35,472 nt of DNA from Marinilabiliaceae bacterium (GTDB lineage: Bacteria > Bacteroidota > Bacteroidia > Bacteroidales > Marinilabiliaceae): positions 1 through 35,472 of the forward strand of contig JAOZOF010000005.1 in the NCBI GenBank assembly GCA_029933425.1, written 5' to 3'. Of this stretch, positions 2,612-19,491 are shown in pieces; the first letter of the stretch is position 1; each line of letters starts with the position of its first letter. Under the pieces are notes generated by a model. The model had not been told where the DNA came from. It was given only the letters and a program-made list of their open reading frames with translations, and made no database searches. A program made the position numbers and the translations under genes.

Positions 2612-2640
2612 CCCGAAGATCACTTCGGGTTTCTTATTTT
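2612..2640. terminator. Intrinsic terminator hairpin between convergent transcription units
   Basis: The stem is cccgaag (2612-2618) paired with cttcggg (2623-2629), with a 4-nt loop atca. On the + strand it is followed by tttcttatttt (2630-2640). On the - strand the same hairpin lies immediately after the stop codon of the 213-aa gene but has only a weak U-tract (auuccuguug). Confidence 0.55.
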
Positions 2641-3280
2641 ACACCCCTTGAATTGAGCTAACAGCCTCAGCAATTTTTATGGCATCACCTTCTGGTGAAT
2701 CGCCTGAGATCTCCATTTCAACCAGAATCCCGGCCTCCGATCTTTTTAGTGCATTTTCATAGATACGGTCGTAATAGGTAAGTAAAAGCGAAACCGCTGT
2801 TTCATAATCCTGTTCCATTATTGAGCGTCGGATACGGCGATATTTTTTTGGATTTAATTTATGTCTGATCTTTGATGCCGCATTCAATAATTTATCTACA
2901 GGATGTTCGGAATAAGTTCTGATAATTCGTTTGATACGTTTTTCTGCAGATACAATAAGAACTATCATTTTCCCTCTACTCATCTCATTCATCAACCAGC
3001 CGGGTATCTGCAGCCGGCCAAGATAGTTTGATTCATATTCGACCCATACAGGTCTGTCAGGGTGAAATGAATCAAGTCTTTCCTTTATTGCTTGTTCAAA
3101 AACCTCCTGTGAAAGCTGTTGTTTACCACCCAGTCCGCCAAACACCGATCCGTTATGTTTTGCAAGAAACTCCAGATCGAGCACCTGCTCTCCCTTGTTT
3201 TGCAGACACCTTAATATTTCCGATTTACCGGAGCCTGTTTTTCCAAAGATCAGTAGAAATTGCAGTTGCCCTGATTTCAT
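2639..3280 (-). CDS. Stand-alone P-loop protein homologous to the C-terminal domain of tRNA 2-selenouridine synthase (SelU/MnmH/YbbB); no rhodanese domain
   Basis: Walker A GKTGSGKS is encoded at 3221-3244. Four strings match my recollection of the C-terminal half of E. coli SelU. VLDLEFLAKHNGSVFGG corresponds to VDLEGLARHRGSAFG. QQLSQEVFEQ corresponds to QPQLSQASFEN. WVEYESNYLG corresponds to VLEDESRMIG. LLLTYYDRIYE corresponds to LLEEYYDPMY. The protein is 213 aa versus about 360 aa for full-length SelU. Its start overlaps the stop of the upstream gene by 4 nt (ATGA at 3277-3280). Confidence 0.8.
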   Translation of the reverse strand: MKSGQLQFLLIFGKTGSGKSEILRCLQNKGEQVLDLEFLAKHNGSVFGGLGGKQQLSQEVFEQAIKERLDSFHPDRPVWVEYESNYLGRLQIPGWLMNEMSRGKMIVLIVSAEKRIKRIIRTYSEHPVDKLLNAASKIRHKLNPKKYRRIRRSIMEQDYETAVSLLLTYYDRIYENALKRSEAGILVEMEISGDSPEGDAIKIAEAVSSIQGV

Positions 3281-5127
3281 TTCTTTTTGATCTCAGAAGT
3301 AGTATCAAACCTTAAACCGCTTGATCCCTGTCCGCGTCCGGTACGTTTTCTGCGGCCAAACCACGTAAATATACTTCCGTTATACCATCTTGCTCTTTGA
3401 AAAGTAGCCATGACCTGAACACCTGCCTTTGGCACTTCTTCCTCAAAAATATCGTATGGCGATTGTTGAGTGTCATCATCGTTCAAACCATATCTCAGAA
3501 TGTCTGTTCTTGGCCGGATCTGCCCCGGTGACAAAGGATACAACTGTTTAAATGTTCGAGGCATTGAAGCCCGCCGCAATTTTATGGCCCGGTTATCGTT
3601 CCCGATATGAACAGGAACAAACGGGATCCAGTTTTCCGGAATAGTACTTGCCAGTTGATATTTTAAAACACCATCCAGATGTTCATCATCTTCATCCTCT
3701 ACAGAATAAAGTTTCTTCAGGAACTCTGTGAGTTCATAAGATGTCTGATGACCATCCATACTTTCACCAAGCATATCCGGAATACGGTCCTCGACTGCCC
3801 AAACCATATTGGCCATTTCATCACGAATGAATTTAACCATCTCTACAGGATCACTTTCATGCACTTTTGTCAGTACCGGAGGGAAGAATATCCTGTTATC
3901 AATTTCCTGTTGTGTTCCCGACGCACCTGCTATGGTTGTAAGGCTGAACATGTTCCAACGGCTCCAGTCATTCCGGACACCTTTACCTGCAGCCTCAACC
4001 AAAGTTTTCTGTCCAAAACTGTCAGTTACAACAATACCTTTGATCTCCGACAAAGAACCTACAGGAACATCATATGGCACAATAAACCAGTTATTACCGT
4101 AAACAAGAGCAAATTCGGTAATAAGGATCTTTGCCAGGTTCTTCTCATCAGCTGAGATATTACCCAGATCGATCGCAGCATCTTCAAGTTCCCACCATCG
4201 TTTATTGGGCATACCACCAAACTGTGCAGCCGCCGGAATTACGGTCAGGGTCCTTCGTGAACGATAAGACTCTTCCTCCTCCGGAACTATATCTCCAAGA
4301 CCGTCAGGAGGAATATTTTTATCGATATCGAAAGAATACCAATCAAGACTACCGGAATAATACTCATTTGCCCTGAGCACAGTGTTTTCACCATCTTCAG
4401 GCAGGCTGCAGGCAAACTGATATTCAAGCTGGCTTGGATTCCATGACTTGTTATCTTCACCATCAGGATAATAGTATAATTTCTCAAACCATCTGATATA
4501 CTTATCAATAGCGGCAACAGCATTTTGATGATCACTACCGGTCAGATCATCAAAGAACCTGGTCATCACATCCAACCTGTTCTCCATCAGATCGTGATAA
4601 AAAACAGTACCATCCATCGCCCGTTCGTTAGCCGCATCCACAAACTGCATTGCTTTATGATTACTTAAAAGCCTGGCTTTAGCCACAACCTCGTTAGCAG
4701 GATCATCCTCTTCTATCTCCGGCATAACAACAGGATAAGCATCGATAAAATCATGTTTAAGATCACCCGGAAGACCTGCTGCCCCCATTATTCTGAACCA
4801 TTGACTGCCTGTTTTCACCTTTGTTTTGTAATCGAAACGAATAGTATCGGCTTCCACTTTTGTTTCAAGAGGAACATTATCGGCATAAGGTACCGCAGGA
4901 TCATCACCTGTTTGAAACTTCGATATCGTAGTTGTTTCCAGTGCAACCTTCACCAAAGTAGCCGAGCCGGTATCTTCACCCTGAAATTCTCCGAACTGCC
5001 ATTGCCGGCCAAGCATCCAGAGAGGGTCATATATTTCGGCCCTCAGCACATTGTCAAAGTCTTTTTTGCGAGGTCTGACCTCCATCCTGTTCCAGGAGCG
5101 TAACGGTTCACATTGCGAATTAGCCAT
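3277..5127 (-). CDS. Giant-operon protein D (616 aa), unknown function
   Basis: Uninterrupted 616-codon ORF starting 11 nt after the stop of the 2296-aa gene. No signal peptide. Distinctive strings are DPLWMLGRQWQFGEFQGEDTGS (encoded about 4969-5030) and NKRWWELEDAAIDLG...FALVYGNNWFIVPYDVPVGS. The C-terminal tail is basic (GRRKRTGRGQG). Confidence 0.88.
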   Translation of the reverse strand: MANSQCEPLRSWNRMEVRPRKKDFDNVLRAEIYDPLWMLGRQWQFGEFQGEDTGSATLVKVALETTTISKFQTGDDPAVPYADNVPLETKVEADTIRFDYKTKVKTGSQWFRIMGAAGLPGDLKHDFIDAYPVVMPEIEEDDPANEVVAKARLLSNHKAMQFVDAANERAMDGTVFYHDLMENRLDVMTRFFDDLTGSDHQNAVAAIDKYIRWFEKLYYYPDGEDNKSWNPSQLEYQFACSLPEDGENTVLRANEYYSGSLDWYSFDIDKNIPPDGLGDIVPEEEESYRSRRTLTVIPAAAQFGGMPNKRWWELEDAAIDLGNISADEKNLAKILITEFALVYGNNWFIVPYDVPVGSLSEIKGIVVTDSFGQKTLVEAAGKGVRNDWSRWNMFSLTTIAGASGTQQEIDNRIFFPPVLTKVHESDPVEMVKFIRDEMANMVWAVEDRIPDMLGESMDGHQTSYELTEFLKKLYSVEDEDDEHLDGVLKYQLASTIPENWIPFVPVHIGNDNRAIKLRRASMPRTFKQLYPLSPGQIRPRTDILRYGLNDDDTQQSPYDIFEEEVPKAGVQVMATFQRARWYNGSIFTWFGRRKRTGRGQGSSGLRFDTTSEIKKK

Positions 5128-5138
5128 TGTGTTATTTT

Positions 5139-8100
5139 TTAATCGTTATTTTCTGTATTATTTTCTGCAAGATCGAACATACCAAGTTTCGCCAATTCGT
5201 CACGATATTCGTTAACAACGGGATATTCGCCAAGAACAGCAGGAAGAACCTGCGTAAATATTGACTTATCGATATGTTCAGGCTCAACCAACCTGGCTTT
5301 ATACAAGTCCATAGTATCAAGGATCGTATACGCAAGATCGTCCCATTTCCACCAGCCTGTTTCTTCCGGCGGTACGGCAAGCAGCATACTTTGCGGCGGT
5401 TCGGCATCGGGCTGATCGTAATTGAAAGTAACGCCGGTAGTCTCTTCCTTTTGAGGAATGACCTCGATCCACTCATCAATGAGTAATCCGCATGTTCTAC
5501 TGCCTGAAGAACCGGCAATCAACTGATCTTTATTCAAAACAACCAATGAAAGTTTATCACTTTCCGGCTCATATTCCTGTGGATATTCCAGACCCAACCA
5601 ATAATCTGCAACTTCTCCGCCATCAACTGTCTTAACAGTCTCGTAAGGCAGTTGAACAGGAGTATATTCAGGAAAATGATTATCAAACAGCCGGGTCATC
5701 GTACTTACCATCTCTACCTTATTTACCCTTTCCCTCACCTTGGCAATGCTTTCAGCCCATGCATCCATAGCGAACTCATCAGCATTTCTCAGTAATCCCT
5801 GTTCCCTGCCAAGCCCGAGTATCTCTGCTAATTCTTCTCTATTACGCAGTGTAAAATGCGGCACTACAACAAAATCTTTCCCGAATAATTCCCCGGCAGC
5901 ATCTTTCAGACTGTTAACTTTTGTCATGTCTTCCAAACGGTCATCATACCCGATAAAGGCATCTGCTTTATTTGCTTTCACTATCATCTCCTTAAGTACA
6001 CCGACAGCCTGCACAGCAAGCGTTTTTCCATTGCCGCTGCCGGGATCATCAGGAACAGTGCCCTGTATGCCGAAATAAAAAGCTTCAAGAAGTTTATCAT
6101 TCAATGTATTGATCTCATCTTCGGTATAAACAGCTTCTTTAACTTCATTTACATCGTTCACATTTATTCCTTTACCATCAAATACTGATTGAATATCATC
6201 TCTGATACCGGAAAATTTCGAATAAGCTATGTTCGTTCGTAACATTAACTCATCGATATCCAATTGCTGCAAATTCAGATCATCGGGTACATTACTACCC
6301 GGAATAACATAGTCTTCAGCAGTTGTATGCCTCGATCTTGTTATTGTTTCATACAAACCGTTAAACAAAGGCATTACTTCATTAAATGTTTTAATATCCG
6401 GAGTAAGTGTTTCTGAGTTTTCAACCAAATGCTCATTTCTGTCTTTAAAATGAATATTTAATGTTATATCAACAGGAACAGACTGTGAGCTACGCACCTG
6501 ATACGCAATCAATTTATTAAGAGAATCGTCATTATCCTTTTCTGTAGAATTAAGGACATAAAGAGCATCGATCGGCTGAAGGCCAAGATCAGATAATCGA
6601 ACAATGTATGAATGCTCTGCATCATCCTGCATATAGGTAACATAACACCTTATCAATGAAGGATCGCCAATAATATTACCTAACCATTTGTTCAAAGAGG
6701 GTTCAGCAAAAGCCCTTGGGGTCAGAGCCACATTTCCCCAGTGCTGAGATATTGCTGCCGAAGGATCGGACTCAAGAAGTGATGATGACACTGTTTCCAG
6801 CTGAAGTACCATCCGCTGCGTAAGCACATGACCTGTTCTCGGAGTATTTACTATCTGAACTTCCTGCGGCACACGTCCTTCGGATAAAGCTGCAAAGACC
6901 GCAGCCGACCGTACATGATTACCCTGTACAATATGGTATACACTTTCCGAAAGCAACAGGTCACCCATAGCATCAAAAGCATTGGCCATTTCATCTATCT
7001 CTTTCAATATGGCCTCAAACTGTATATTGGTTATATTAGTATTTGGAAAAAGATCAGACTTAAGCTGTGACATGTTCGATCTCTCCAGTTCATAAAACGA
7101 ATCGGCTGATCTTAGTGCCTCTTCCCCCAGTAACTCACGAACTGACTCTAAAAGCTCCAGCCCGTTAACCACATGCATCAGATTCTTCTCTTCATTCTGA
7201 TTAATTGCTGTTCCACTGTCAACATCAGGAACAAGCGGGAATTTCCTCCTCAGATCATAAATGTATTTATCCAGCTCAATTCCCTGAGCAAGATAATTCT
7301 CATGCAATCCGCGTTCGAACTGATAGCCGAGCAGTGCACCTGTTTCCTGACCATTGCGAATGCCCCCTATCAATTTCAGCGCCATCCTGACCCTTTTAGA
7401 GGTCAGATTTACCGCCATGGCATTGTTCATGTCACCGGCTCCGCGGTTTGCCATGTAACCACCGCGTAATATGGCGGCAGTCATAGCATGATTGATAGAA
7501 GGAGTATGAATAAATCCTTCATTATCCTCATCGGTATAAACGATCTTGTTGTCATTTTCTTTAAGCCTATCGGGCAGGTCAACGGCAGGTTTTCTTTCAC
7601 CCCCGGGTTTCAGGTCTTCAAGCAAACCGAATGCCCCAAGGTAAATACCTTTAGGTGCCGTTCCTTTTCTCATCTTATCGAGACGTTTATTGGCAAGACC
7701 CAGTTGCCAGGCATCAAAACGATAAGTACACAGATCCAGGTGTTCGGCAAAAAGTCTTTCAAGAACACTAACAGGTAATTCATTAAGTTCAAGAAATTGG
7801 TTTTTAAGCTGTGTGACCTTAACAACATTAAGATCGTCTTCACGTAACTGGTATAAATAGTCACCCATTGACCAGTTATGAGATTTGATATGTTTCCACA
7901 ATTTATTATGTTCCCAAACTCCCTCACCTGCAAGCGGGAAATGCTCAAAGACCCTGATCCCGTCACTCATCATATTTTCCAGATCAGATAACCGTCTGAA
8001 CAGATAATCCCATTTTGTAAAGATTACATCATTACCATCAGGCCCGGGAATAAGATATGTTCCTTTTGAACCTGCCCTTCTTCGGGTATTTTCATTGATT

Positions 8101-11100
8101 ATCCTCTCTTCCATCAAAATATCGAGAGCAACATCCCTGTATGCAAGAGCCAGAGACTGACGAAGAAACATAAAGAAAAGTGAATTGCTTTTCAGATCGT
8201 CGTAAGCATCATCATTCCAAAGATGGTCAAGAGGAACAGAAAGCAATTTATTAATATAAGTATTCCCATTAACAGAAGGAAGGAAATCATCATCATTTTC
8301 ACGCACAAAAGGTCCTAACAACTGTCCAAACTCATTATGATACCTCAAACGGAATATCCTTGCCTCTCCTATCCGTTCAATGTGTTTCATGTCGAAATAA
8401 GTATCATCAATAAAATACCCTTCATCAAGAAGTTGTCCGAAGAGCGTTTTCATGTTTGCAGGACCGTACATGGAATCCTTTGAAAAATTAACCGTAAAAT
8501 CTTCTCCTATCGACGGTTTTATGCTCCGGCGCTGTGCCACATTGGTATTGTAACGATAATACTGTTCGATAGAAGTAGCCTGTAATCCCAGTAACTGTAT
8601 AAAATGTTCCTGAGCAGATTTTTGTTCCGGGTCAAAATCATCGATCTTCAACTTTTCTCTTTTTACAATGTCTGTCCATTGCCTTCTTAAGACTGACAGA
8701 AGATGATTTAACCTGATATCGAAACGCTGTTGCAGGATGTTATCAGAATATGACGAAGAATAGTATTTTATATCATCTTTATCAAGTGGTGGCAACTGTT
8801 CATTTCTATATGCCTTAAATCTTGAGAATGCGGTCGTTGGCAAAATACCATAAGGCTGGTTACCGATACGCAAAGCCGGAAGCCATCCCCGTCCCGTAAC
8901 ATATTTTGTAAAATATTCACGTGTTCTTCTGTTGTTATCGAGGTTAAATACAGTATCCAACACCTCTTCAAGATAGTACCCCATGGTACTGTTCCACATG
9001 CTTTTATTCATCAACAAAGCGTTGTAGATATCCCTGCCGTCTGCATTTTTCAGTCTGTTGAAAACGGAATCATCAACACCAAGTGCCTCCATTATGCGAT
9101 AGCCATCTATGTTTTGCCTGCCGGCAGAGTATTCCGTAAAAACAGGAGATCCGGTAATTCGCCTGTAAGTATCATCAATCTCATCCTGTGAGCTAAAACC
9201 TGAGACTTTCTTTTCTGTGTTATTCGTGGCTGTGCCTATGGATAGAAGATCAATACCTTCAGGTAAATATGCATGAGATCTTAACAGTTTTTCCAGCATG
9301 ATCTTGGCCTCTTCTGCTCCCGTATGTTTTACTCCGATAACAATGATCTTATCAAACCCGTTTTCTCTCTCATCAGGTCTCAGTGGTACAGTAATTCCCA
9401 TACCTTTTTTTACTGCCTCATCAAAATCGGTGAGCCATTTTGTATTCTCATCCATTTTCAGATTGCCTTTGTCATCATATTCAAAAAGGCCTTCTGTATT
9501 TGATGAAGGATCGATACCGACAATAAGAGGATCGGGAATGGCATTACCTACTTTTGTATGAGTAAATTCACCGTCTTTCATGCCGAGAAAAACAAATCGA
9601 TCAGGCATAACCTCTGAACGCGGAGCTCCGGACCAGGATTCTTCTTTTAACCTGTAATCATCAGGAAATTCAGGAAATACGGTAGATTCTAACAATGTAA
9701 TATCCTTAACTGCTTTCACTTCCTCCAGTTTACCGACAAGAGTAACTGCAGCATTAACAGCATCATCAAAATTGCTGATATCCTGAGACGTAAGTTGAAG
9801 GCCTGATAATTTATTGAAAGTCTGTTTCAGAGCATTTAATTTTTGCCCCACCTGATCCAGCAATCCGGCAACAGTGTTAAGCATACCGGCAGTTTCCTTC
9901 TGAAAATGGTCAGCCAGTATCACACATGCATTCAGCTCAAAATGCAGGTTATTCAGATTTACCGGTAAAAAGCTGAAGTTGCTTCTGTTCTGAGCATTTA
10001 TTTCATCAATGATACTATTTACTTCTTTAAGTTTGTTTTTGATCTCAATTAAAGGTCTCGACGGTTTACGGTGTCCCCGCCCTGTTCTTTCGGGAGTTAA
10101 AAGATCACGCAAATAAACGGCTCTGTTCTCACCGTACTTCAATGCAAGCGGGCGCCATGCTGCCAATTCTGTCTCCTCGTCATTGGCGGCATTCCATACC
10201 TCTGTCCAGAAATACCGGGTATCATCAAGCTCCTCACGGGTAATGGCTTCTTCATGAGAATTGATAAAAATATCATCAGGATAGATCCTTACCCAAAGCT
10301 CATCAACTGTTTCGGAAGGCATTTCAAAGATGAACTTCTTCCTGAAATCGTCATAAAAAGCATCATATTCATCAGTGATATCACTTTCCAATGTTCCTGC
10401 TATATCGTTTATCGCTTTCTTTGCCTGCTTCATCTCCTCAATTAACGAAGCCAGCCTGCGATTACTTTTAGCCTTTTTTTCTATTCTTGTAAAAAACGTA
10501 TTAAGACCATTAAGCCTGTAATGCAGGTCTTTAAAGAATCTTTCAGGAATAATTGTTGTTTTGGTTACCAAAGCAGCAAACTCATCCTTAAAATCCTGCA
10601 CTCTGCTTACTGCAATTCCCAAAGCCCTTTTATGCACAGTATCAGCATAAGCAAGTGTTCTGATATGTTCGGTAAGTTCATCTAATTTTCTTATTGCAAT
10701 GTTATAGGCATTAGCACTTTCAATAAAATTGGAATTTTTGATAAAAGCTCTGTTTTCCGGTGCTTCAAGTTTCAACCCTTCAAGGTCAGCCCTGTAATTT
10801 TCGTTGATATGGGATATACTGCGGGTTATCCCTGCTTTTTCATAGCGATTAGTTGGTTTAAGCCGCGATACCTGCCATGTATACTCTTCGAGCAGAACAT
10901 CAACCTCGCTCCATGTTGACCTTAACTGATGGATAATTTCGGGAGAACCGGTGATGATATCATGCCCTGCCTCCCTGAATTTTCGTAAGAGATGATAAAG
11001 ATGAACACGTGTTTCCTTTAATTCACCATAATTTTTAAACCCTTTTTTGTTTATCAGTTCCAGCTCAAATTTGATCATTTTGGCCTGGTAAACCAATTCT

Positions 11101-12029
11101 GTTCCGTTTACTCTTTTTAACTCATAAACATAGTTCAGTTTAGGAACTATCACCTCTTCTATCATTGTTGAAATATTACGCATTCCCGGAAGAATAAAAG
11201 AGTGATATCTTGTCAGAAACTCATTTCTTTTATAATCGGAACGAATACGTGAGAGTTTTTTTCTGACTTTGGTCAGAGCCCTGTGATACACTACCGGCAT
11301 TTCACTTATCCGGCTGATCTGATTTGGATTGGCAATTACATTTTTCATTGCCTTCTCTTCCACATCAACAAGAGTCTTGTCTATCTTCTCAAACTGTTTA
11401 TCAATGTAGTTGAAATAGTGATGTTTTGTCTTTGAAGTATACTTAACCGGTTTATCCGATATTCGCTGTAACACATCTTCAATGTAATTCAATTTACCTA
11501 CCAGTTGCTTTCCTTCGTCATATTCAGTCTCTTTTGCTTTTGCGATCCGGTAATTCTCAATTTTCAAAACAGCATTTTCCAAAGCCCGTCTGACATTTGC
11601 TAAATGTTGTTGTAACTCATGCGACAGACCTTCAAATTTTACAATCAGGCGGTCATAGCTTTCCCTGATATCCGCCACGTTCTCTTCCCACCGGGTATTC
11701 TCAGGATATGGCAGAGGCATAGGATCAACCATCCTTCTGTCAAGATCGCTGATCACTTTTTCTAATTGTCTACGCAGGTCTCTTGCTTCAGGGAGATCAT
11801 CAAGCTCAACATGTTCGAGTTTAAGGAACAGATATTTCAGCTCCACCAGAAGATGTAACACATCCGGATCGAAATTCAGTGACACAGGCCTGTCAACCTT
11901 CATGAACCTTGTTTCAAGCCTTACCGGCATCAAAAGAAAAGGGAACTGGTCGCTATGTCTCCCTGTAGCCTGTCGCACCTGCTGAATGTTAGGATCATTA
12001 AATTTGGTACTGATAATATCCTGACTCAT
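5139..12029 (-). CDS. Giant-operon protein C (2296 aa), unknown function; long N-terminal helical/coiled-coil-like region
   Basis: Uninterrupted 2296-codon ORF. No signal peptide, TM cluster, or T9SS CTD. The N-terminal motif FPFLLMPVRLETRF is encoded at about 11904-11945. Roughly the first 800 aa are rich in E/K/L/R heptad-like sequence. A later motif, GRGWLPALRIGNQPYGILPTTAF, is encoded at about 8830-8900. Confidence 0.9.
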   Translation of the reverse strand: MSQDIISTKFNDPNIQQVRQATGRHSDQFPFLLMPVRLETRFMKVDRPVSLNFDPDVLHLLVELKYLFLKLEHVELDDLPEARDLRRQLEKVISDLDRRMVDPMPLPYPENTRWEENVADIRESYDRLIVKFEGLSHELQQHLANVRRALENAVLKIENYRIAKAKETEYDEGKQLVGKLNYIEDVLQRISDKPVKYTSKTKHHYFNYIDKQFEKIDKTLVDVEEKAMKNVIANPNQISRISEMPVVYHRALTKVRKKLSRIRSDYKRNEFLTRYHSFILPGMRNISTMIEEVIVPKLNYVYELKRVNGTELVYQAKMIKFELELINKKGFKNYGELKETRVHLYHLLRKFREAGHDIITGSPEIIHQLRSTWSEVDVLLEEYTWQVSRLKPTNRYEKAGITRSISHINENYRADLEGLKLEAPENRAFIKNSNFIESANAYNIAIRKLDELTEHIRTLAYADTVHKRALGIAVSRVQDFKDEFAALVTKTTIIPERFFKDLHYRLNGLNTFFTRIEKKAKSNRRLASLIEEMKQAKKAINDIAGTLESDITDEYDAFYDDFRKKFIFEMPSETVDELWVRIYPDDIFINSHEEAITREELDDTRYFWTEVWNAANDEETELAAWRPLALKYGENRAVYLRDLLTPERTGRGHRKPSRPLIEIKNKLKEVNSIIDEINAQNRSNFSFLPVNLNNLHFELNACVILADHFQKETAGMLNTVAGLLDQVGQKLNALKQTFNKLSGLQLTSQDISNFDDAVNAAVTLVGKLEEVKAVKDITLLESTVFPEFPDDYRLKEESWSGAPRSEVMPDRFVFLGMKDGEFTHTKVGNAIPDPLIVGIDPSSNTEGLFEYDDKGNLKMDENTKWLTDFDEAVKKGMGITVPLRPDERENGFDKIIVIGVKHTGAEEAKIMLEKLLRSHAYLPEGIDLLSIGTATNNTEKKVSGFSSQDEIDDTYRRITGSPVFTEYSAGRQNIDGYRIMEALGVDDSVFNRLKNADGRDIYNALLMNKSMWNSTMGYYLEEVLDTVFNLDNNRRTREYFTKYVTGRGWLPALRIGNQPYGILPTTAFSRFKAYRNEQLPPLDKDDIKYYSSSYSDNILQQRFDIRLNHLLSVLRRQWTDIVKREKLKIDDFDPEQKSAQEHFIQLLGLQATSIEQYYRYNTNVAQRRSIKPSIGEDFTVNFSKDSMYGPANMKTLFGQLLDEGYFIDDTYFDMKHIERIGEARIFRLRYHNEFGQLLGPFVRENDDDFLPSVNGNTYINKLLSVPLDHLWNDDAYDDLKSNSLFFMFLRQSLALAYRDVALDILMEERIINENTRRRAGSKGTYLIPGPDGNDVIFTKWDYLFRRLSDLENMMSDGIRVFEHFPLAGEGVWEHNKLWKHIKSHNWSMGDYLYQLREDDLNVVKVTQLKNQFLELNELPVSVLERLFAEHLDLCTYRFDAWQLGLANKRLDKMRKGTAPKGIYLGAFGLLEDLKPGGERKPAVDLPDRLKENDNKIVYTDEDNEGFIHTPSINHAMTAAILRGGYMANRGAGDMNNAMAVNLTSKRVRMALKLIGGIRNGQETGALLGYQFERGLHENYLAQGIELDKYIYDLRRKFPLVPDVDSGTAINQNEEKNLMHVVNGLELLESVRELLGEEALRSADSFYELERSNMSQLKSDLFPNTNITNIQFEAILKEIDEMANAFDAMGDLLLSESVYHIVQGNHVRSAAVFAALSEGRVPQEVQIVNTPRTGHVLTQRMVLQLETVSSSLLESDPSAAISQHWGNVALTPRAFAEPSLNKWLGNIIGDPSLIRCYVTYMQDDAEHSYIVRLSDLGLQPIDALYVLNSTEKDNDDSLNKLIAYQVRSSQSVPVDITLNIHFKDRNEHLVENSETLTPDIKTFNEVMPLFNGLYETITRSRHTTAEDYVIPGSNVPDDLNLQQLDIDELMLRTNIAYSKFSGIRDDIQSVFDGKGINVNDVNEVKEAVYTEDEINTLNDKLLEAFYFGIQGTVPDDPGSGNGKTLAVQAVGVLKEMIVKANKADAFIGYDDRLEDMTKVNSLKDAAGELFGKDFVVVPHFTLRNREELAEILGLGREQGLLRNADEFAMDAWAESIAKVRERVNKVEMVSTMTRLFDNHFPEYTPVQLPYETVKTVDGGEVADYWLGLEYPQEYEPESDKLSLVVLNKDQLIAGSSGSRTCGLLIDEWIEVIPQKEETTGVTFNYDQPDAEPPQSMLLAVPPEETGWWKWDDLAYTILDTMDLYKARLVEPEHIDKSIFTQVLPAVLGEYPVVNEYRDELAKLGMFDLAENNTENND

Positions 12030-12075
12030 GATTATATTTTTTTCAATTATTAAATATTTCTAAAAGACCCGTTGT

Positions 12076-14976
12076 TCAGGGAAGCATTTCTGATGCATGC
12101 CGGGCATAAATAACAGGGTTCTGATACAGTATAAAAGCCATTTCAGCCGAATTGGTTCCCCACGACGGGTTTGAAGCTGTTGCTCTGATATAACTGCAAC
12201 TGATGCAGTACAACTCATCGAGGCTTCCGTCAGCGGGAACAAGGTGCCCCCATTCCAGGTCATTCCATACTGTTGCATTTCCCGCAGGTATGGTTTCCGA
12301 ATCATCCAGCCCGAAATTTATCTGTCCCGGACGCTCTTTCAACACAAAGAACCACCCCTCGGGATAATCATTGTTCCCCTGTGCCTCTTCTTTAGTCAGA
12401 TTAAAGCCGAAGATGGCAATATCCGGCTCAAGCTCAGCCTGAAATATAGGCGTTCTGATATTATCAGGATTGTTCATGTCAGACAATCCTCTGGGTTGTC
12501 CGGCTCCGCTGGACACAGCCTGCTGAGCAAAGATCACTGTGTTAGGATATTTTCGCAGCAAATCGCCACGGATAACGAGAACCACAAAGTTCTTTTTCTT
12601 CTCCGGTGTTCCCTGTTCATTGATTATCCTTTCATTGTGTTCGCCAAGATGATCATTCCATTGATCCATAGGAAGAATGTCATGATCGTCCCTAACGCTC
12701 AGACTATCCTTGTCGTCCCAGAAGTTCCTGAAATAGGAACCTCTCTGGTCAGTCGGGTACTCACGCCACAAAAGTTCTTTCGACATTTCATGGTTCAGCC
12801 CTGTCATAATAGATTCTATGAACACCTGATTGTTTTCAAGAAGTGTTATCGTATTTTCCGGTATTTCTCTGATGTTGGGAATGATATAATCCTGAGATAC
12901 TTTTTGCAGATAAAGAAACATGGGTTCCTGAATTTCAGGATAAGCCATTATTGGTTTTATTTTCGCCAATTTATTCTTTCCCACAAGTATTCTCGGGGAT
13001 AACATATTCGGTATTGTAACTAACGGATCGATCTGCTTTGACAACGATTGTGAGAATCCTTCCAGATCATGAAGTGATGGAGGAACAGGCTTAACAGGAA
13101 GCGTTGCAAGCTCTGATGCAAACGTCTGAAAATTATGCAAAAACAGTTCTTGCGAAGAAATAGCTTCAGGAGGAAGCTGTAAATTCTCATTTTCCTGTGC
13201 TTGCTGTGTATTCTGCAAATCAAGAAAATAATTTATAGCACTTTCAACCTCTGAAGTAGATACTACCATAGCAGGTTCAGTTTTCTTTTTAGCTGCTGTA
13301 AGAGCCCTCTCTTCTGTGCCTATATCTTCAAGGTTAAAATTAGTTATCAGCTCTTTCAGTATCGGGGTTCCGGTTGCATCCGCCTCTTCTTTGTTAAGAT
13401 TTTTAATTGCTTTCTTTCCCGGACGCACGATCTTTTTAAAAGCAGCACTCCTGACAGCATTAGGGATCTTGCTGCGTGTCAGATTCTCCTCAAAAGTTTC
13501 ATTGCTTTCAGGATGCAGAATGAACTTTTGTGCAGCAGAGGTCGTCATTAAAAGTTTATCTTTATCCATACGGGTAAAATGTTTCTCATAAATGGCATTA
13601 TTGATCATTTTAGCCATTTCGGCTTCCCGTATTTTCTGATTAGCCTCATTGATCTCACCCACCTGTTTCCAGGCCATCTCCATAAATTTCTCCTGATACT
13701 TTCTGACAATACCGGTTCCCACTGAGGCTGCTGCCCTGTTTTTAGGATCAAGATTAAGCTCATCAATCCATACTTTTACATTTCCGCCGGCTTTTCGCAT
13801 AAGAGCCTGCCACTTACCATAAATAGGCGGACTTACAACAGGATCATCAACTACTTTCTCAGAATAAAACACATCAGGATCGTTAGGATCATAAAACGGA
13901 TTTACAACATTGCTGCTGTCCTGGGTTGTTTCACTGATATCAGCTGAAACATTTAAAATGAGCTTCAGCTTGTCTCTGAACTGAGTATCGCCTGCTCCGC
14001 CCGGCCATACCGTCGGGGTGAACGAAGGAGGTTTAAGAGCTCCTTCCAGGCCCAGAACAGTGGTGTTTGCCATGTCATCCAGCCCCATCCCGGGTTTCTG
14101 GATATTCATATCACGTTTCCCGAAATTCGGTCCCAAAGGTTTAGCTGTAAGTATTCGCACAAGTGATTCGAAATCGCCGTTCCTTCCGGTTTTAAACTCC
14201 CAGTGGTAATAAACAGGATAATCATTAGGCCTTACGGATGAATCAGCCGTGCTACCGGTGGTCCATGAAGATTTTTGTGCCGGCACATCTTTGGGGTCTT
14301 CACCCAAACCCGCCAGTCGTCCTGTTTCAAAGGCAGGGATCAGAAAAGCATGGTATTTCACACCATCTTCTGCCCGCTCCAAATGCCGCGGACTTATCAA
14401 TCGGGAATATGCAATATCAGGGTTGGCTTTCAGTTCCTGCGTAAGCATACTCTGCACCCCGGTCCGGTTCAGAGAATGATTTACGTGTACATGCGCCCAT
14501 GCCCAGGTCTCTGTATTATCGGGAAACACCTTTGCGGCAGCATTATTTTTAATGCTTACAAAAGGTAACCCGTCACCCATATCCCTGAACTCATACTCTT
14601 CTTCTTTGGCCACTATCAGAAAAAGCCACGGACGCAATCTTTTTTCACTTTCAACCCTTATGGCAGGAGTATATCTCCATGGGAAATCCTCCTCGTAAAA
14701 TTCAATGTATGCCAACGCATTACTTTCAAAGTCTTCTGTACCCTCCTGAGGATGGACACGCAAAACAGCATCTTTGTTTATGCCTGTTACATCTCCGGGC
14801 CCCTGCAGTTTGATGTTTTTTGTTATCAGGGTATTGTTAAGATCGAACTGAACCGTGAGTTCCGCCCTCTCTTTAGTTGCAGTAACAGAAACTCCAAGTG
14901 TATCCTGCTCTGTTATCTTATTGGCTATCCCCAGCTTCAACCAGGGAAGAAATGAATATTTAGATAGTGAGGCCAT
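12076..14976 (-). CDS. Giant-operon protein B (966 aa), unknown function
   Basis: Uninterrupted 966-codon ORF starting 27 nt after the stop of the 1495-aa gene. No signal peptide. Distinctive strings are YSFLPWLKLGIA, LQGPGDVTGI, EEDFPWRYTPA, RPWLFLIV and C-terminal VLKERPGQINFGLDD. A short helical stretch is KFMEMAWKQVGEINEANQKIREAEMAKM. Confidence 0.9.
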   Translation of the reverse strand: MASLSKYSFLPWLKLGIANKITEQDTLGVSVTATKERAELTVQFDLNNTLITKNIKLQGPGDVTGINKDAVLRVHPQEGTEDFESNALAYIEFYEEDFPWRYTPAIRVESEKRLRPWLFLIVAKEEEYEFRDMGDGLPFVSIKNNAAAKVFPDNTETWAWAHVHVNHSLNRTGVQSMLTQELKANPDIAYSRLISPRHLERAEDGVKYHAFLIPAFETGRLAGLGEDPKDVPAQKSSWTTGSTADSSVRPNDYPVYYHWEFKTGRNGDFESLVRILTAKPLGPNFGKRDMNIQKPGMGLDDMANTTVLGLEGALKPPSFTPTVWPGGAGDTQFRDKLKLILNVSADISETTQDSSNVVNPFYDPNDPDVFYSEKVVDDPVVSPPIYGKWQALMRKAGGNVKVWIDELNLDPKNRAAASVGTGIVRKYQEKFMEMAWKQVGEINEANQKIREAEMAKMINNAIYEKHFTRMDKDKLLMTTSAAQKFILHPESNETFEENLTRSKIPNAVRSAAFKKIVRPGKKAIKNLNKEEADATGTPILKELITNFNLEDIGTEERALTAAKKKTEPAMVVSTSEVESAINYFLDLQNTQQAQENENLQLPPEAISSQELFLHNFQTFASELATLPVKPVPPSLHDLEGFSQSLSKQIDPLVTIPNMLSPRILVGKNKLAKIKPIMAYPEIQEPMFLYLQKVSQDYIIPNIREIPENTITLLENNQVFIESIMTGLNHEMSKELLWREYPTDQRGSYFRNFWDDKDSLSVRDDHDILPMDQWNDHLGEHNERIINEQGTPEKKKNFVVLVIRGDLLRKYPNTVIFAQQAVSSGAGQPRGLSDMNNPDNIRTPIFQAELEPDIAIFGFNLTKEEAQGNNDYPEGWFFVLKERPGQINFGLDDSETIPAGNATVWNDLEWGHLVPADGSLDELYCISCSYIRATASNPSWGTNSAEMAFILYQNPVIYARHASEMLP

Positions 14977-15003
14977 ATCAGTAGATTTTAAATTTTTCTG
15001 TTC

Positions 15004-18000
15004 TTAATCCTGTAAAACTGCTTTATAGTCAGGAATGATGATCAATTCATCTTTCAGTGACGGATCAGCAGTTGCAGCGTTCAAAAATGCCTCATTGGCT
15101 TCAGCTCTTGAACCTTGTTGGAAAGTAACCGAATCAAAAACCTTCAGATCGCTCTTTCTCGCAATAACAAAATGTTCTGTTCCAAGAGTGACTTTCTTTG
15201 GATTATTAAATGTCCGCACTCTGTTTTTCCCTGAGAGAACCGAATTACTTACAGCTCCTCCTTTTGCAAAATGAGTAAAAAGCTCTGCAGGAATTGTTAA
15301 CAGATCAGACTGATGAATTCCGTAGCTTGTCAGACCTCTGTCCGGATTGTCATTCATGCGTTCAGTATCCGAAATAATAACCTCATATTCCACATTTTTG
15401 TTAATGCCCCACTGCGTTTCGGGCTCATCTGTTCCTGTGGTTTTAAACCCGCCTTTAAGCTTTTCAAATGAAGGAGCTGATAATTTATCGTCATCACTCA
15501 TCTCTTTGTAAGCTGCAGGAACAAAGTCTTCCCTCGCCGTCCCGGTATCGAGAGGTGTTGTACCACTTGAGTTATAAAGTCTGATATCAGATATCTCAAA
15601 CAACTTATCACCTGTCGGATTATTATTCCCGAACCGTTCAATGGAGATCCCGAGAGGAACTATCTTCTGACTTACGGTAAGTGTACCGAAGGCAGCCATC
15701 AGAACTTCTCCTTCAGCAAGGTCGATATCTTTACGCAGTGTTATCAGGTCGAAATGATCAACGGGAAGTTCACTTTTCCAGTTATTGCTGTCGTTAAGAG
15801 CTTTGATAACAAGCGGCAAAACATTGACATCGGGAAGAGTGATCTTTTTCTCCTCACCGATAGTCTTACTAAATTTGGCAGTATACTTAATGAACAATAT
15901 TCTGAAAGAAGCCTTGCCGGAAGCAACCCACGGATTAGGCCCTGTAAGAGTAAAGCTGAGTGAAATAGAGAACAGGGTCGATCCACCGCATTTTACAGCC
16001 AGCCCGGCACTTACCTGTGCAATAAAACGAAAAGGATCGAAAATAAACAACACATCAAATCCAAATCCTCCTACAATTTTGAACATTGCCACCTTCAAGT
16101 AAAAGTCAATGGCAGCGCCAAACTGAACGGAGTTAGTTGTAAGGGCAAAATAGCTGGTAAGTGTCAGCCTCGGATTTCCGCTAAGGAAATTGATGGTCAG
16201 CCGTTTCATCTCAAAGAAATGCAGATGCGGTGCAGGTTTATAAGCCGGGTGAAATCCTCCCACTGCGACGGCAAAATCAGGACTGGCACCCCACGACAAA
16301 CGCAAAGCCATCTGACCTTCGAGAGTAAAGGTGACAATGCGTGAATCGAATAATCCTGCATCAAACGATATCATTCCTTTATTAAAGTCTATAACACCTA
16401 TGAATGCCACATTGATCTTTATCAATGCATGTTCTTTGGTAGGGATAGCAGTTCTTATCACACCGAGAATAAATATCCTTACAGGATCGTCAAATTCGAT
16501 CATCACTCCCAGTTCAATGGTAAGCAATGGCGGTGTATTCCAGGTTATCATGGCCATCGGGCCAATCAGGAACTGATCGCGCTTAGGCGGGAATATTGCA
16601 CGCAAATCACTTATGATCTGACTGATGTTGCTGATCACATTTTTGGGGAAAAGAATATTTGAGATAGATCCCGTATTGACACCTGAGCCTAATTTATCGG
16701 CATTAACAGTACGATGTAATCCGATCAAACCACCCACTCCTGAAAGGTAGAAATTATAACTCAGAGGTATCGGCGCCGGAAACTCCGTTGTTATGATTAT
16801 CAAAAGTGATGTCCCTTTACTTCCGTCAGGCAGAACTGTTGTAAGCAGGCCAATGGCAGTAAACGAGAACATATCCTGAATTGACAGCTCAAGGGCTCCG
16901 GCATACCGGTTGTTATCACTGTCGAAGAAAAGATATCCGCCTCCTGTAAAGATATCTGACTCAAGACTTATACCTATACCTTTAGGATAGATGACGCGCA
17001 AACTGACATCCACCGGACCCAGATTTCCCCCGCTGTCTTTTAATTCTATCTTAGCACCAAGTCCCATGCCTTCGATGGTACAGGTAACAGGGCCCAGCGA
17101 GAATTTCGTTCCTAACAGCAAAGCATCTATTTCTGTCGGATCTCCTGTTTTCAGATCGATCTGAATAGCCCTTATGGACATAACATCGCCAAAGCTCATA
17201 TCGACAGGCACAGTGGCACTTCCTCCCTGCCCTATATTTTTTATATTGAAACCATTCGGCCATGAAAGATCAATATCAATATCGATATTATCTGTTTCCG
17301 ACAGATCAAACTTTTTGATGTCAATATCTTTTGGCACAAATTTCTCAATACCCGGAATAACAATATGATTAACGATCTTACCTCCGAATCCGAAACTCCA
17401 TTTACTGCCATGTTTACCTATCGACAACATCGACAGCTGAACATTTATCAGATCTTCGATATCAACAACATTTATGTAATCCGTACCTTCCGGAATCTTT
17501 GCTGTTATAGCAAAACCATTTTCTTCAAAAGTGATATCTATATTCAGTTCAATATCAAAAGCATCAATTTTAATGGTTCCTGATATTTCGGTGTCAGATT
17601 CAATAATGCCGTCTTTGTTAAAACCGATAGTAAGTTTGGTGAGCTTGATCTCCAGCCCGCCGAGATAAAGTGATGGAACAGGGGAACCTGAAACACTGAT
17701 CTTGTAATTATCGTTGTCCTTCGTCAGATTTATTCCGATGGCCTGAGGACTTCCGCTGCCGTTATCAACCATTGGAAAGCACAAAGTGCCGTCTGCAGAG
17801 AACTCCTTAATGCCTGAAGTATTCAAGCTGAACAAAATAGTTCCGAGGTCTAGTTTTATTCCGGCTAAATCAAAAGCAGGAATATTATCAAAAGTAAATG
17901 AATATGTATCATCTGATATTGTCACAGCTATGTCCACTTGCGCATCTTCATCTGTTCCCGCTTTTTTCAATCCCTCAATGATCAGTTTTCCGTTGATGTT

Positions 18001-19491
18001 TGTAGTATCAAGTGAATTCTTATTGAATTGCAGATCAAAATTCTCGAGCTGTACTTTAAACAGGCCGGGCAGTTCAAAATGCAGCAAATCGCCCGGATGA
18101 GCCGGATCGGTCTCCATAACCAGATGTCCCGTAAAACCACCCGGATCTCCAATGAGCAGGTTCCTGCCTTTGATAACAGCAGTTGTTGATTGCGTATCGT
18201 CTGTCTGCCATATTGCAGGCAATGTTACCGTAGCTTCATCAATAAAAATACCTTTGAAAGTCAGAGGACGTCCATCGCTGTTGGCTTGCGGAATATTGGT
18301 ATCATCATGTATATCCAATACACAAGAATCAAAATCAATAGTAATACCTGTCTCCAAAACAGAAGATCGTTGCAGCTCACATGTTAACACCTCATCAAAA
18401 TCAAAACCGGATTCTGTTGTAAAGCTGAAATTACCCACATGAAAAGTCAATTTTGATGTAGCCGGTTCTTGTAAAAAATGATTCTGATCATCCAAAGGAA
18501 TAAGCATGCTACGGGGAAATTCAAAAGCCAGATCAACATTCGTTACATGTGCTTCAACCTGAGGTACAAACAACTCCTCGAACGATGATGGCATATCAGG
18601 AATATGAATATTCAGAAAATGAAAAAGCTCTTCTTTCAGGGTATTAAAATTACTGCTCACATCAATAACAAGATCTTTTATCAGATCAACAGCGCTATGC
18701 CCGAGGCTACTTAATTTTGTACCAACAGCATTAAAATCCAGATGAAGATCATATTCTATCCTATCAGAACCGGTAAGTCCATATTTTTGATTCAGGCTTT
18801 CAACCAGTTTATAAATTCCTTTTTTTATTACTGCCCCCAGTACCTCTGATGCAGAAGAAGGATCACTGACCACAGAACCGAGATTAAAATCGGAAATAAT
18901 ATCATCTAACGTTTTGCCCGCATTAGCAAGTAAGCTGTCTTTAATTTCATCAAATGTCGGCACACCGGAAAATGAAAGTTCATTCGCCGTCCCTGCCAGG
19001 TTATAAAACCTGTTCAGTTCATCAATAATAGCCTGAACAGGTATTGTTATCGTATCTGCTGCTTCCTCGTAATATGAGATCAGTTTATCAATAACACTCT
19101 CATAATCTATATCATAAATATTTGTCAAAGTCGTCAGGAGGGTATCCAGATCGGAGGGAATACTTTGAATATTAAAATCACTGATAAACTTGATAATATT
19201 CCATACATAATGAACCTGCAGGGGGATCTCTGTTGTTGTTACACTACCGTTCACAGCAGGATTCAACAGCAACTTCACTTCTAAACCCGGAAAAGTAAAA
19301 CTTATTGTTTTGGTAAAAACAAGGGTCAGATTGTGAGTGGCTTCATGACCACTGGCGCTTTTGTTTGTAACAACATGATTCTTATATTGAATATCAGCCA
19401 AAAACCCGGAAGTCAGGTCAGGAATATGCAGTTCTTCAGGCAAAAGATCGATAGAAATAAGGTCAGACAAAGGTAATAACGGGTCAGGCAT
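15004..19491 (-). CDS. Giant-operon protein A (1495 aa), unknown function; the C-terminal half resembles the DUF6603-type conserved module (from memory, unverified)
   Basis: Uninterrupted 1495-codon ORF and first gene of the operon. No signal peptide or CTD. It has three apparent zones. The N-terminal ~400 aa are acidic and helical-looking. A middle region is beta-rich with quasi-periodic sequence. A conserved-looking block runs from GGGYLFFDSDNNRYAGALEL through GVGGLIGLHRT, GPMAMITWNTPPLL and VGGFHPAYKPAP to FALTTNSVQFGAAIDF (encoded about 15850-16950). Confidence 0.9.
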   Translation of the reverse strand: MPDPLLPLSDLISIDLLPEELHIPDLTSGFLADIQYKNHVVTNKSASGHEATHNLTLVFTKTISFTFPGLEVKLLLNPAVNGSVTTTEIPLQVHYVWNIIKFISDFNIQSIPSDLDTLLTTLTNIYDIDYESVIDKLISYYEEAADTITIPVQAIIDELNRFYNLAGTANELSFSGVPTFDEIKDSLLANAGKTLDDIISDFNLGSVVSDPSSASEVLGAVIKKGIYKLVESLNQKYGLTGSDRIEYDLHLDFNAVGTKLSSLGHSAVDLIKDLVIDVSSNFNTLKEELFHFLNIHIPDMPSSFEELFVPQVEAHVTNVDLAFEFPRSMLIPLDDQNHFLQEPATSKLTFHVGNFSFTTESGFDFDEVLTCELQRSSVLETGITIDFDSCVLDIHDDTNIPQANSDGRPLTFKGIFIDEATVTLPAIWQTDDTQSTTAVIKGRNLLIGDPGGFTGHLVMETDPAHPGDLLHFELPGLFKVQLENFDLQFNKNSLDTTNINGKLIIEGLKKAGTDEDAQVDIAVTISDDTYSFTFDNIPAFDLAGIKLDLGTILFSLNTSGIKEFSADGTLCFPMVDNGSGSPQAIGINLTKDNDNYKISVSGSPVPSLYLGGLEIKLTKLTIGFNKDGIIESDTEISGTIKIDAFDIELNIDITFEENGFAITAKIPEGTDYINVVDIEDLINVQLSMLSIGKHGSKWSFGFGGKIVNHIVIPGIEKFVPKDIDIKKFDLSETDNIDIDIDLSWPNGFNIKNIGQGGSATVPVDMSFGDVMSIRAIQIDLKTGDPTEIDALLLGTKFSLGPVTCTIEGMGLGAKIELKDSGGNLGPVDVSLRVIYPKGIGISLESDIFTGGGYLFFDSDNNRYAGALELSIQDMFSFTAIGLLTTVLPDGSKGTSLLIIITTEFPAPIPLSYNFYLSGVGGLIGLHRTVNADKLGSGVNTGSISNILFPKNVISNISQIISDLRAIFPPKRDQFLIGPMAMITWNTPPLLTIELGVMIEFDDPVRIFILGVIRTAIPTKEHALIKINVAFIGVIDFNKGMISFDAGLFDSRIVTFTLEGQMALRLSWGASPDFAVAVGGFHPAYKPAPHLHFFEMKRLTINFLSGNPRLTLTSYFALTTNSVQFGAAIDFYLKVAMFKIVGGFGFDVLFIFDPFRFIAQVSAGLAVKCGGSTLFSISLSFTLTGPNPWVASGKASFRILFIKYTAKFSKTIGEEKKITLPDVNVLPLVIKALNDSNNWKSELPVDHFDLITLRKDIDLAEGEVLMAAFGTLTVSQKIVPLGISIERFGNNNPTGDKLFEISDIRLYNSSGTTPLDTGTAREDFVPAAYKEMSDDDKLSAPSFEKLKGGFKTTGTDEPETQWGINKNVEYEVIISDTERMNDNPDRGLTSYGIHQSDLLTIPAELFTHFAKGGAVSNSVLSGKNRVRTFNNPKKVTLGTEHFVIARKSDLKVFDSVTFQQGSRAEANEAFLNAATADPSLKDELIIIPDYKAVLQD

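Follow-up and report, generated by a model that had tools for sequence, protein, structure and literature searches.

The described systems closest to the locus reported here are the Tc (ABC) toxins, in which one operon encodes a set of giant, soluble, acidic proteins that lack signal peptides and an invariant machine carries a variable enzymatic payload at the C-terminal tip of TcC, and the polymorphic toxin systems, including Rhs, contact-dependent inhibition (CDI) and the VgrG-adaptor-effector modules of type VI secretion systems (T6SS), in which a conserved part is combined with a rapidly exchanged module. Two further points of comparison concern single proteins: the giant β-barrels and lipid-binding belts such as PapC/FimD, LptD, SprA, SlpA and ApoB100, and the enzyme MnmH (SelU), in which the Walker motif is needed for geranylation and may bind geranyl pyrophosphate, and in which tRNA binding by the P-loop domain has been proposed as well (PMC4830565). 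The locus lies in a Marinilabiliaceae bacterium (assembly GCA_029933425.1), on a stretch of 35,472 nucleotides (nt) of contig JAOZOF010000005.1 that is referred to below as the window. It holds an operon of five genes, A to E, the first four of which form a cassette that is conserved as a unit across at least ten bacterial phyla and in haloarchaea, and which in most genomes carries an exchangeable enzyme gene at its upstream end.

The five open reading frames (ORFs) of the operon lie on the minus strand and together hold 5586 codons, or 47% of the window. Gaps of 27, 46 and 11 nt separate the first four, and the end of D overlaps the start of E by 4 nt (ATGA), a packing that had been described in a first-pass annotation of the sequence and is confirmed by the ORF list. 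The genes, in order of transcription, are:

15004-19491, minus strand: gene A, 1495 amino acids (aa), a DUF6603 protein and the first gene of the four-gene core
12076-14976, minus strand: gene B, 966 aa, second core protein, unannotated family
5139-12029, minus strand: gene C, 2296 aa, third and largest core protein, unannotated family
3277-5127, minus strand: gene D, 616 aa, fourth core protein, unannotated family
2639-3280, minus strand: gene E, 213 aa, a stand-alone P-loop domain derived from MnmH/SelU

Proteins A, B, C and D are all acidic, and neither transmembrane segments nor signal-peptide-like N-termini were found in any of the five operon proteins. A regular-expression scan of A to D for Walker A, HKD, DEAD and YD motifs returned nothing, the sole Walker A being in E. 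The large proteins had been described as poor in motifs, which holds for B, C and D, as these match nothing in Pfam, NCBIfam or PADLOC and reach PHROGs only at non-significant scores (C and D), and does not hold for A, which carries DUF6603. The reported absence from the large proteins of a YD motif, a signal peptide and a type IX secretion system (T9SS) C-terminal domain was borne out, the last of these being carried by none of the five operon proteins.

The conservation of the cassette was assessed by using B to scan one genome per species, which gave 80 loci from Bacteroidota, Chloroflexota, Acidobacteriota, Actinomycetota, Alpha-, Beta- and Gammaproteobacteria and Verrucomicrobiota. By tblastn of the five window proteins, A-B-C-D occur in the same order and on the same strand in essentially every locus that is long enough, and the conserved unit is these four genes, not five. 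The peptide strings that the first-pass annotation had singled out are all present and fall on invariant or nearly invariant alignment columns, and the recurrence in neighbouring proteins of unrelated phyla that it suggested is verified, far beyond chance, by the order and strand kept in essentially all complete loci of the 80. Across cassettes the core proteins measure about 1150 aa or more (A), about 1000-1100 aa (B), about 1600-2400 aa (C) and about 620 aa (D). The neighbourhood analysis that had been proposed likewise found the four large families co-occurring across phyla; clustering of all flank ORFs yielded no recurrent flank gene and no fifth universal gene.

The spread of the cassette extends beyond this sample. 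Matches include a B match on an unannotated plasmid of Gemmatirosa (Gemmatimonadota), cassettes on Streptomyces and Nocardia plasmids, a Streptomyces europaeiscabiei cassette flanked by tyrosine recombinases, a cassette in a Desulfobulbia metagenome-assembled genome (MAG; Desulfobacterota) and a DUF6603 homologue, seen as a single-gene match, in a Candidatus Aminicenantes MAG. A megaplasmid of the haloarchaeon Salinigranum marinum encodes homologues of all four window proteins (D at E = 3e-78), and in Halobellus the 619-aa gene at the position of D is not detectably D. Family sizes at E <= 1e-10 among the scored candidates are at least 1889 for D, at least 3120 for B and at least 1530 for A, and an exhaustive profile search with D returned 5017 representatives (50%-identity clusters) at E <= 1e-3, of which 1894 reach E <= 1e-30. 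Other phyla and other Bacteroidota show equal identity to the window protein, about 35-37%, and pairwise identities in any one of the four families track those in the others (Spearman 0.64-0.81 between matrices, 42 loci). Since cross-phylum identities equal those within the phylum and the matrices correlate, sequence comparison indicates that the four genes are inherited and horizontally transferred as one unit.

A phage origin was rejected, as 2.9 million IMG/VR viral contigs yielded no relative of B. The lone record filed under phage (L086; MT835531.1, 'UNVERIFIED: Bacteriophage sp.') is a 40-kb, high-GC contig from a human faecal virome, which holds homologues of B, C and D at one end, ends inside the cassette and looks like a bacterial contig filed as phage. 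Duplications were observed at four loci (L050, L045, L049 and L092), as tandem or partial second cassettes or as several DUF6603 genes in a row: in L050 the ends of C and D from one copy lie directly upstream of a full payload-A-B-C-D copy, and Spongiimicrobium salis (L092) has a pair of DUF6603 genes ahead of its one B-C-D-E set. In a Streptomyces longwoodensis plasmid (L084) B is fused to VCBS repeats (1706 aa), and about 1.7 kb upstream of this cassette the opposite strand encodes an RHS-repeat protein. In the Salinigranum marinum plasmid (L093) C and D carry the PGAP annotations 'BGTF surface domain' and 'lamin tail domain', respectively.

Annotated copies are all named 'hypothetical protein' or 'DUF6603 domain-containing protein', and DUF6603, PF20248 and AAA_SelU returned no paper in a search of openly accessible full texts, which likewise gave no description of the cassette. 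Because none of the features that could be looked for in Tc/RHS toxins, contractile injection systems, PADLOC systems or outer-membrane barrels was found, and because no description exists in this literature, the core cassette appears, as judged from its sequences, to be categorically new as far as databases and searchable literature go. The proposal that the operon represents an undescribed, conserved multi-subunit module is thus upheld by very strong cross-phylum synteny and by the lack of detectable homology to Tc toxins, extracellular contractile injection systems (eCIS), T6SS, adhesins or known defence systems.

The slot directly upstream of A is nearly always filled, on the same strand and, where checked, with small overlaps or short gaps. 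Its occupants are one to three trypsin/Nal1-like peptidases, S8 subtilases, PLD proteins, PhoD-like phosphatases, an M64 peptidase, a tyrosinase or members of the unannotated families c6, c9, c10 and c17. The PhoD-like partner is found repeatedly, in Bacteroidota, Streptomyces and Salinigranum alike, and in Nocardia the S8 peptidase is found 3' of D instead of upstream of A. No recognisable Sec or Tat signal was seen on the payload enzymes when their N-termini were inspected. Partner type differs even between cassettes with B proteins that are 65-78% identical (S8/PLD, c17/c10, trypsin-like/c10 and c6/M64). Among locus pairs with a B identity of 0.6-0.8, the two parts of A behave as follows:

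Same partner: A N-terminal identity 44-62%, identity in the DUF6603 part of A 64-80%
Different partner: A N-terminal identity 21-28% (the background of global alignment), identity in the DUF6603 part of A 64-80%

Because identity in the N-terminal part of A follows partner type and identity in DUF6603 does not, these comparisons indicate that the unit of exchange is the enzyme gene or genes together with the N-terminal ~400 aa of A. B, C and D, like DUF6603, remain 64-80% identical through such changes. In the window protein the exchange junction lies at about aa 735, the point from which tblastn detects homology to most other A proteins. Exchange of this kind follows the logic of a polymorphic effector system and, of the conflict, defence or toxin-like functions suggested earlier, points towards the toxin-like or effector end.

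Some small genes upstream of A had been grouped as A paralogues; they are trypsin/Nal1-like peptidases joined to the A cluster by single linkage through one 1184-aa protein. The N-terminus of the window A was also considered as a fused payload of family c6 and rejected (hhalign probability 0.2%). In L006, L023 and L090, small ORFs of about 136-213 aa lie between or beside the trypsin-like payload genes and are candidate inhibitors or immunity proteins.

Gene A matches Pfam DUF6603 (PF20248) over aa 764-1334 (nt 15490-17202) with E = 8.6e-120 and 401 bits against a cut-off of 27, spanning profile positions 2-501 of 502. The same family is matched by 35 of 36 aligned A homologues, which have no other Pfam family in common. 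Three parts of the protein can be distinguished:

18082-19491, minus strand: A aa 1-470, clade-specific N-terminal domain, 53% identical to aa 1-470 of the A protein of L087
17287-18066, minus strand: A aa 476-735, repeated β-rich modules that align to repeats in the giant A proteins of L030, L046 and L055
15859-17223, minus strand: A aa 757-1211, DUF6603 core, for which AlphaFold2 (AF2) predicts a meander of 28 or more amphipathic β-strands in antiparallel order

The N-terminal 470 aa have no Pfam match and occupy the slot that is filled in other cassettes by the payload-linked exchangeable domain. The start codon of A and its N-terminus MPDPL..PL are kept in the relatives L087 and L089, and relatives hold more copies of the β-module than the window protein does (about 330 aa more in L087). 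An HExxH string, HEATH, occurs at aa 49-53 (nt 19333-19347, minus strand) and is kept in L087 and not in the more distant L003; because its context is β-strand-like, it is probably not a zincin site.

Structure predictions cover D and aa 736-1495 of A. The model of A (predicted local distance difference test score, pLDDT, 80.4; predicted template modelling score, pTM, 0.66) shows an uninterrupted meander with strands of 10-18 residues, whose hydrophobic and polar faces have mean Kyte-Doolittle values of +2.5 and -0.66, respectively. Its Foldseek neighbours are the ushers PapC and FimD (E = 1.4e-4 to 1e-3, probability 0.96-1.0), the β-belt of ApoB100 (E = 1.2e-3), LptD, SlpA, SprA, porins and VDAC, with no RHS, Tc, teneurin or tail chains in the top 50 matches. 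Over the range of E = 1e-4 to 1e-2 the matches have TM-scores of 0.13-0.21 and sequence identities of 7-9%. Because the TM-score is only about 0.2, the modelled likeness to barrels and to the ApoB100 belt would be one of topology only, not a fold or family assignment. Homologues of A are present in Actinomycetota and Halobacteria, and because A lacks a signal peptide and is also found in monoderms and archaea, it is not a conventional outer-membrane protein.

The remaining core proteins B, C and D are without recognisable relatives. A family-wide Pfam scan of 40 B, 25 C and 39 D homologues revealed no shared family, and searches of PDB sequences with single proteins and family profiles gave only compositional helical-bundle or coiled-coil matches: none for the B protein or its family profile, and non-significant coiled-coil matches for the C profile. 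The three were also considered as mutual paralogues, which was rejected as hhalign finds no homology among them. B consists of conserved N-terminal (aa 1-440) and C-terminal (aa 680-966) parts around a variable middle. The principal features of C and D are:

10305-11903, minus strand: C aa 43-575, helical, coiled-coil-like insert between the strings LLPVRLETRF and ELWVRIYPDD
4960-5094, minus strand: D aa 12-56, invariant string WNR.E.RPR...DPLWMLxRQWQxGEFxGEDxGS, modelled as disordered

The insert of C is missing from most homologues, with an alignment occupancy of 0.2-0.4 against about 1.0 in the core. Its aa 57-560 are helical, with a hydrophobicity periodicity of 3.5 residues and a low content of proline and glycine, and the weak PHROG matches of C to tape-measure and tail proteins (E about 0.01) fall within this coiled-coil region. 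The model of D (pLDDT 76.7, pTM 0.73) comprises a helical domain and β-rich domains and has no structural relative in the PDB (best Foldseek E = 0.15, TM-score below 0.1) or among the predicted viral structures of BFVD. The invariant columns of D are E16, R18, R20, D34, W37, Q42-Q44, G46, E47, D52 and G54, and residues 1-53 have a pLDDT below 50; the segment aa 12-56 is a candidate docking site for a partner subunit. Fused variants of D provided no informative additional domain.

Gene E was correctly recognised at the outset as encoding a SelU-like P-loop protein: its match to NCBIfam NF008750 (E = 3.5e-54) runs from model position 138 to 325 of 346 and takes in only the P-loop half of MnmH/SelU. 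Its scores lie under the curated equivalog cut-offs (184.2 against 241 bits for NF008750, 165.2 against 219.75 for TIGR03167). PADLOC gave only weak generic P-loop matches for E (mad8 1e-4, mad3 7e-4). PF26341 AAA_SelU is recorded for the E orthologues in L081, L087 and L089; among the relatives that carry it, the 80%-identical one likewise has D and E overlapping by 4 nt. The defining motif of E is:

3221-3244, minus strand: Walker A GKTGSGKS, E aa 13-20, found by regular expression and kept in all aligned E homologues

The rhodanese domain, in which the catalytic cysteine of the enterobacterial MnmH is C97, is absent from the window E, which, when aligned to longer homologues, begins with the P-loop domain. 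In many E homologues an N-terminal rhodanese domain is still present, and within the aligned set the active-site cysteine is retained in some and lost in others. An origin of E as a remnant of a selD-selU operon was rejected: the neighbour with an AIRS domain in L087 is PurM-like, without the SelD cysteine motif, and E travels with the cassette across phyla.

The suggestion that the SelU-like gene completes the system did not survive, as the core is A to D and E accompanies only a sub-clade in which C is long. This 'long-C' sub-clade, to which the insert of about 530 aa is confined, also carries E: an E-like gene adjoins D in 9 of 10 assessable loci that share the C insert and in 3 of 45 others, and those three also have long C proteins (Fisher p = 3e-7 for E against the insert, a statistic that ignores phylogeny). 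E-bearing loci span Bacteroidota, Gammaproteobacteria, Acidobacteriota, Actinomycetota and Desulfobacterota, with E on either strand. Close relatives of the window (59-80% identity) have an identical A-B-C-D-E layout, with an A of 1817-1828 aa that has the same N-terminal 470-aa domain and extra β-modules, and an E of about 210 aa. Neither they nor the window have a separate enzyme gene; A in this sub-clade has a long N-terminal extension (aa 1-735 in the window). Because E is mainly confined to long-C loci, its distribution marks it as a lineage-specific accessory of this sub-clade, not a core part. It is probably a regulator or assembly factor that depends on a nucleotide or pyrophosphate ligand, and its role may be tied to the coiled-coil insert of C.

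The regions that border the operon comprise two short non-coding elements:

19492-20034, minus strand: non-coding leader and presumed promoter region, 543 nt, AT-rich and ORF-free
2612-2629, strand not assigned: G+C-rich hairpin with a 7-bp stem (5 G-C pairs) and a 4-nt loop, 9 nt past the stop codon of E

Both elements had been noted before and are found as described. The leader has a GC content of about 0.33 (scan in 1-kb windows), and neither it nor the rest of the window has an Rfam match or, over the whole window, a tRNA. Sigma-70-like matches in the leader are weak and no more frequent than in shuffled sequence, and the exact Bacteroidota -7 element TAnnTTTG is absent from its minus strand. 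The hairpin is likely a terminator; its T-tract is weak on the minus strand and better on the plus strand.

The same 543-nt spacer is used by a divergent MASE11/HisKA/HATPase histidine kinase gene (20035-21387, plus strand), which may reflect a regulatory link or coincidence. In L089, the 59%-identical relative, a His_kinase and LytTR response-regulator pair (L089 1164-4053) is divergent upstream of A, and in L087 the PurM-like gene takes the position of that pair. Further along the plus strand (24070-30098) a 1643-aa protein with nine PKD matches and a CHU_C T9SS sorting domain is immediately followed by a PorP/SprF gene; this is a typical pair of T9SS cargo and PorP, and the host is a T9SS-bearing member of the Bacteroidota. 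GC content is 0.39-0.46 over the operon and 0.31-0.38 in the left flank and leader, a contrast that fits horizontal acquisition, but the 24-30 kb region is equally GC-rich. A GTG-started ORF of 252 aa (12244-13002, plus strand) lies antisense within gene B and is probably spurious; similar antisense ORFs inflated flank cluster c4 in high-GC loci.

The reading that we tentatively prefer, at rather less than even confidence, is that the cassette encodes an effector-carrier complex, which delivers a payload and acts outside its producer in antagonism or predation. A to D would be made jointly and most likely form a single large soluble complex, with B, C and D serving as scaffold, the giant amphipathic β-sheet of DUF6603 engaging membranes or lipids, and the N-domain of A, which is swapped along with the enzyme genes, presumably docking the enzyme. 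Action outside the producer is favoured because the payload enzymes belong to classes typical of exoenzymes and toxins, because extracellular-type domains are sporadically fused to components (PKD, VCBS, peptidoglycan-binding, lamin-tail, the BGTF surface domain named by PGAP and, weakly, ConA-like lectin) and because the hosts are largely hydrolytic or predatory, large-genome bacteria. For the window itself the payload model is transferred from relatives, because it has no payload gene of its own.

This and several other points weigh against an effector carrier. No signal peptide, transmembrane segment, lysis cassette or secretion gene is associated with the cassette, which leaves the export route unexplained, and no immunity-like gene was identified, the small ORFs near some payload genes not being conserved. 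The TM-scores of DUF6603 are low, as given above, and amphipathic strands are likewise shown by any β-sandwich. The link between payload and A N-domain could reflect joint recombination without physical docking, and the association of E with long C again carries no correction for phylogeny. An 'envelope-spanning assembly', as raised in the first-pass annotation, is unlikely, because the cassette is unchanged in diderms, monoderms and archaea and has no transmembrane segment or signal peptide. A further-reaching form of the effector-carrier reading is improbable on present evidence: A-B-C-D would then be an unrecognised class of self-contained protein-delivery nanomachine of Bacteria and Archaea, a soluble complex of about 0.5 MDa released from the producer, in which the DUF6603 β-sheet enters or wraps the target membrane and the enzyme docked on the A N-domain is translocated, with no dedicated secretion system or core NTPase and with regulation in one sub-clade by E as an exapted, MnmH-like tRNA-modification enzyme.

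The chief rival, which we regard as unlikely, is an intracellular immune or abortive-infection system, in which the giant proteins would serve as sensor and scaffold and, on phage infection, free or activate the adjacent enzyme (peptidase, PLD or phosphatase) inside the producer. Such a system would agree with the patchy phyletic distribution and horizontal mobility of the cassette, which is found on plasmids and beside integrases, with its exchangeable effector-like enzyme slot, with the addition of a P-loop accessory in one sub-clade, and with the lack of export signals; occurrence in diderms, monoderms and archaea also suits a cytoplasmic machine. However, none of 5027 PADLOC models matches A to D, E showing only generic P-loop noise, the core has no NTPase, nuclease or helicase, the flanks are unlike defence islands and have no recurrent neighbours, and an extracellular character is shown by several of the fused domains and payloads (PKD, VCBS, peptidoglycan-binding, lamin-tail, tyrosinase and M64). 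A further rival is a non-toxic extracellular or surface scaffold on which, as in a cellulosome, degradative enzymes would be displayed or stabilised, either to acquire nutrients or to remodel the envelope, with no effectors delivered into other cells; the payload hydrolases and oxidases are typical of exoenzymes, adhesion-type domains are fused to components, and the hosts are mostly polymer-degrading, large-genome bacteria of soil and sea (Saprospiraceae, Chitinophagaceae, Streptomyces, Pyrinomonadaceae). We hold this to be quite improbable, as no component has a secretion signal, no carbohydrate-active payloads were seen, and fast payload swapping between close cores, with mobile and patchy spread, is more typical of conflict systems.

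It is very improbable that the cassette is a highly divergent Tc/ABC toxin, an RHS cocoon or an eCIS, T6SS or phage-tail-like particle, to which the giant, soluble, signal-peptide-free proteins, the payload logic and the weak tape-measure and tail matches of C might have pointed. Those PHROG matches are confined to the coiled-coil region; Pfam domains of Tc, VRP1, RHS, sheath, tube or baseplate type are absent from 36-40 members each of A, B and D and from 25 of C; the YD motif is missing; and profiles of the four families against PDB sequences gave nothing or coiled-coil and helical-bundle noise. Foldseek finds nothing for D and no RHS, Tc or tail protein for DUF6603, and the absence of B from the IMG/VR contigs also tells against a viral particle. 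For A and D, descent from a known machine is largely refuted. That the five ORFs are unrelated chance neighbours or annotation artefacts was suggested only by their lack of any annotation and has already been refuted: gene order and strand hold in essentially all complete loci of the 80 and also in archaea, the families run to thousands of members that share dozens of invariant residues, and the AF2 models were obtained with confidence.

The finding is real and strongly non-random and places the cassette among the better candidates for an undescribed prokaryotic machine. If the effector-carrier reading is true, thousands of genomes, spanning at least ten bacterial phyla and haloarchaea, spend 15-20 kb each on an unnamed four-protein machine, of which three parts have no Pfam family and at least one has no structural relative. 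It would also provide the first biological context for DUF6603 and for a non-canonical, cassette-linked branch of SelU/MnmH, and would matter to microbial ecology (predatory or antagonistic Bacteroidota, Streptomyces), to the study of toxins and to the engineering of a protein-delivery chassis. On this reading the cassette hints at a new route of cell-to-cell protein delivery that is independent of envelope type, and its exchangeable enzyme slot offers an immediate experimental handle.

Gene E encodes a homologue of the C-terminal P-loop domain of MnmH/SelU and keeps its Walker A motif intact, but has neither the rhodanese domain nor its catalytic cysteine; the rhodanese domain is also degenerate in several cassette-linked homologues, and the E gene travels with a mobile cassette across phyla. 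The DUF6603 model shares with the giant β-barrels and ApoB100 a long amphipathic antiparallel meander, but A has no signal peptide and is present in monoderms and archaea. Monoderms and archaea, to our knowledge, lack insertion machinery of the β-barrel assembly machinery (BAM) type, and for A neither a signal peptide, a BAM context nor global structural similarity to outer-membrane barrels was found. For the sheath, tube, baseplate and spike of contractile injection systems there was no Pfam or NCBIfam match, nor are there suitably sized partners in the window.

The likeness to Tc toxins lies in the operon of several giant, soluble, acidic proteins without signal peptides, in the combination of an invariant machine with a variable enzymatic payload, and in the mobile, patchy distribution. 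The cassette differs in having no VRP1 or TcA domains, no RHS/YD cocoon and no Foldseek match to Tc toxins (judged for A and D from structures and for C by sequence). VRP1, TcA and TcB-binding domains of TcA type gave no Pfam match in the window proteins or in 25 C members, and for the RHS/YD β-cocoon neither a YD motif nor an RHS Pfam match was found in the window proteins or in homologues of B and A. The payload of the cassette is encoded by a separate gene tied to the N-domain of A, in contrast to the C-terminal tip of TcC, and the cassette has four core families instead of three and also occurs in archaea.

Polymorphic toxin systems differ from the cassette as follows: no known trafficking domain was detected in the cassette and no immunity gene was identified after the payload, its exchanged module lies at the 5' end of the operon, and its payloads are mostly peptidases and phosphatases, not nucleases or deaminases. 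What the two have in common is a conserved part joined to a rapidly exchanged module, with a recombination junction inside a core protein (A, at about aa 735), such that payload type and the N-domain of A change jointly while DUF6603, B, C and D are conserved.

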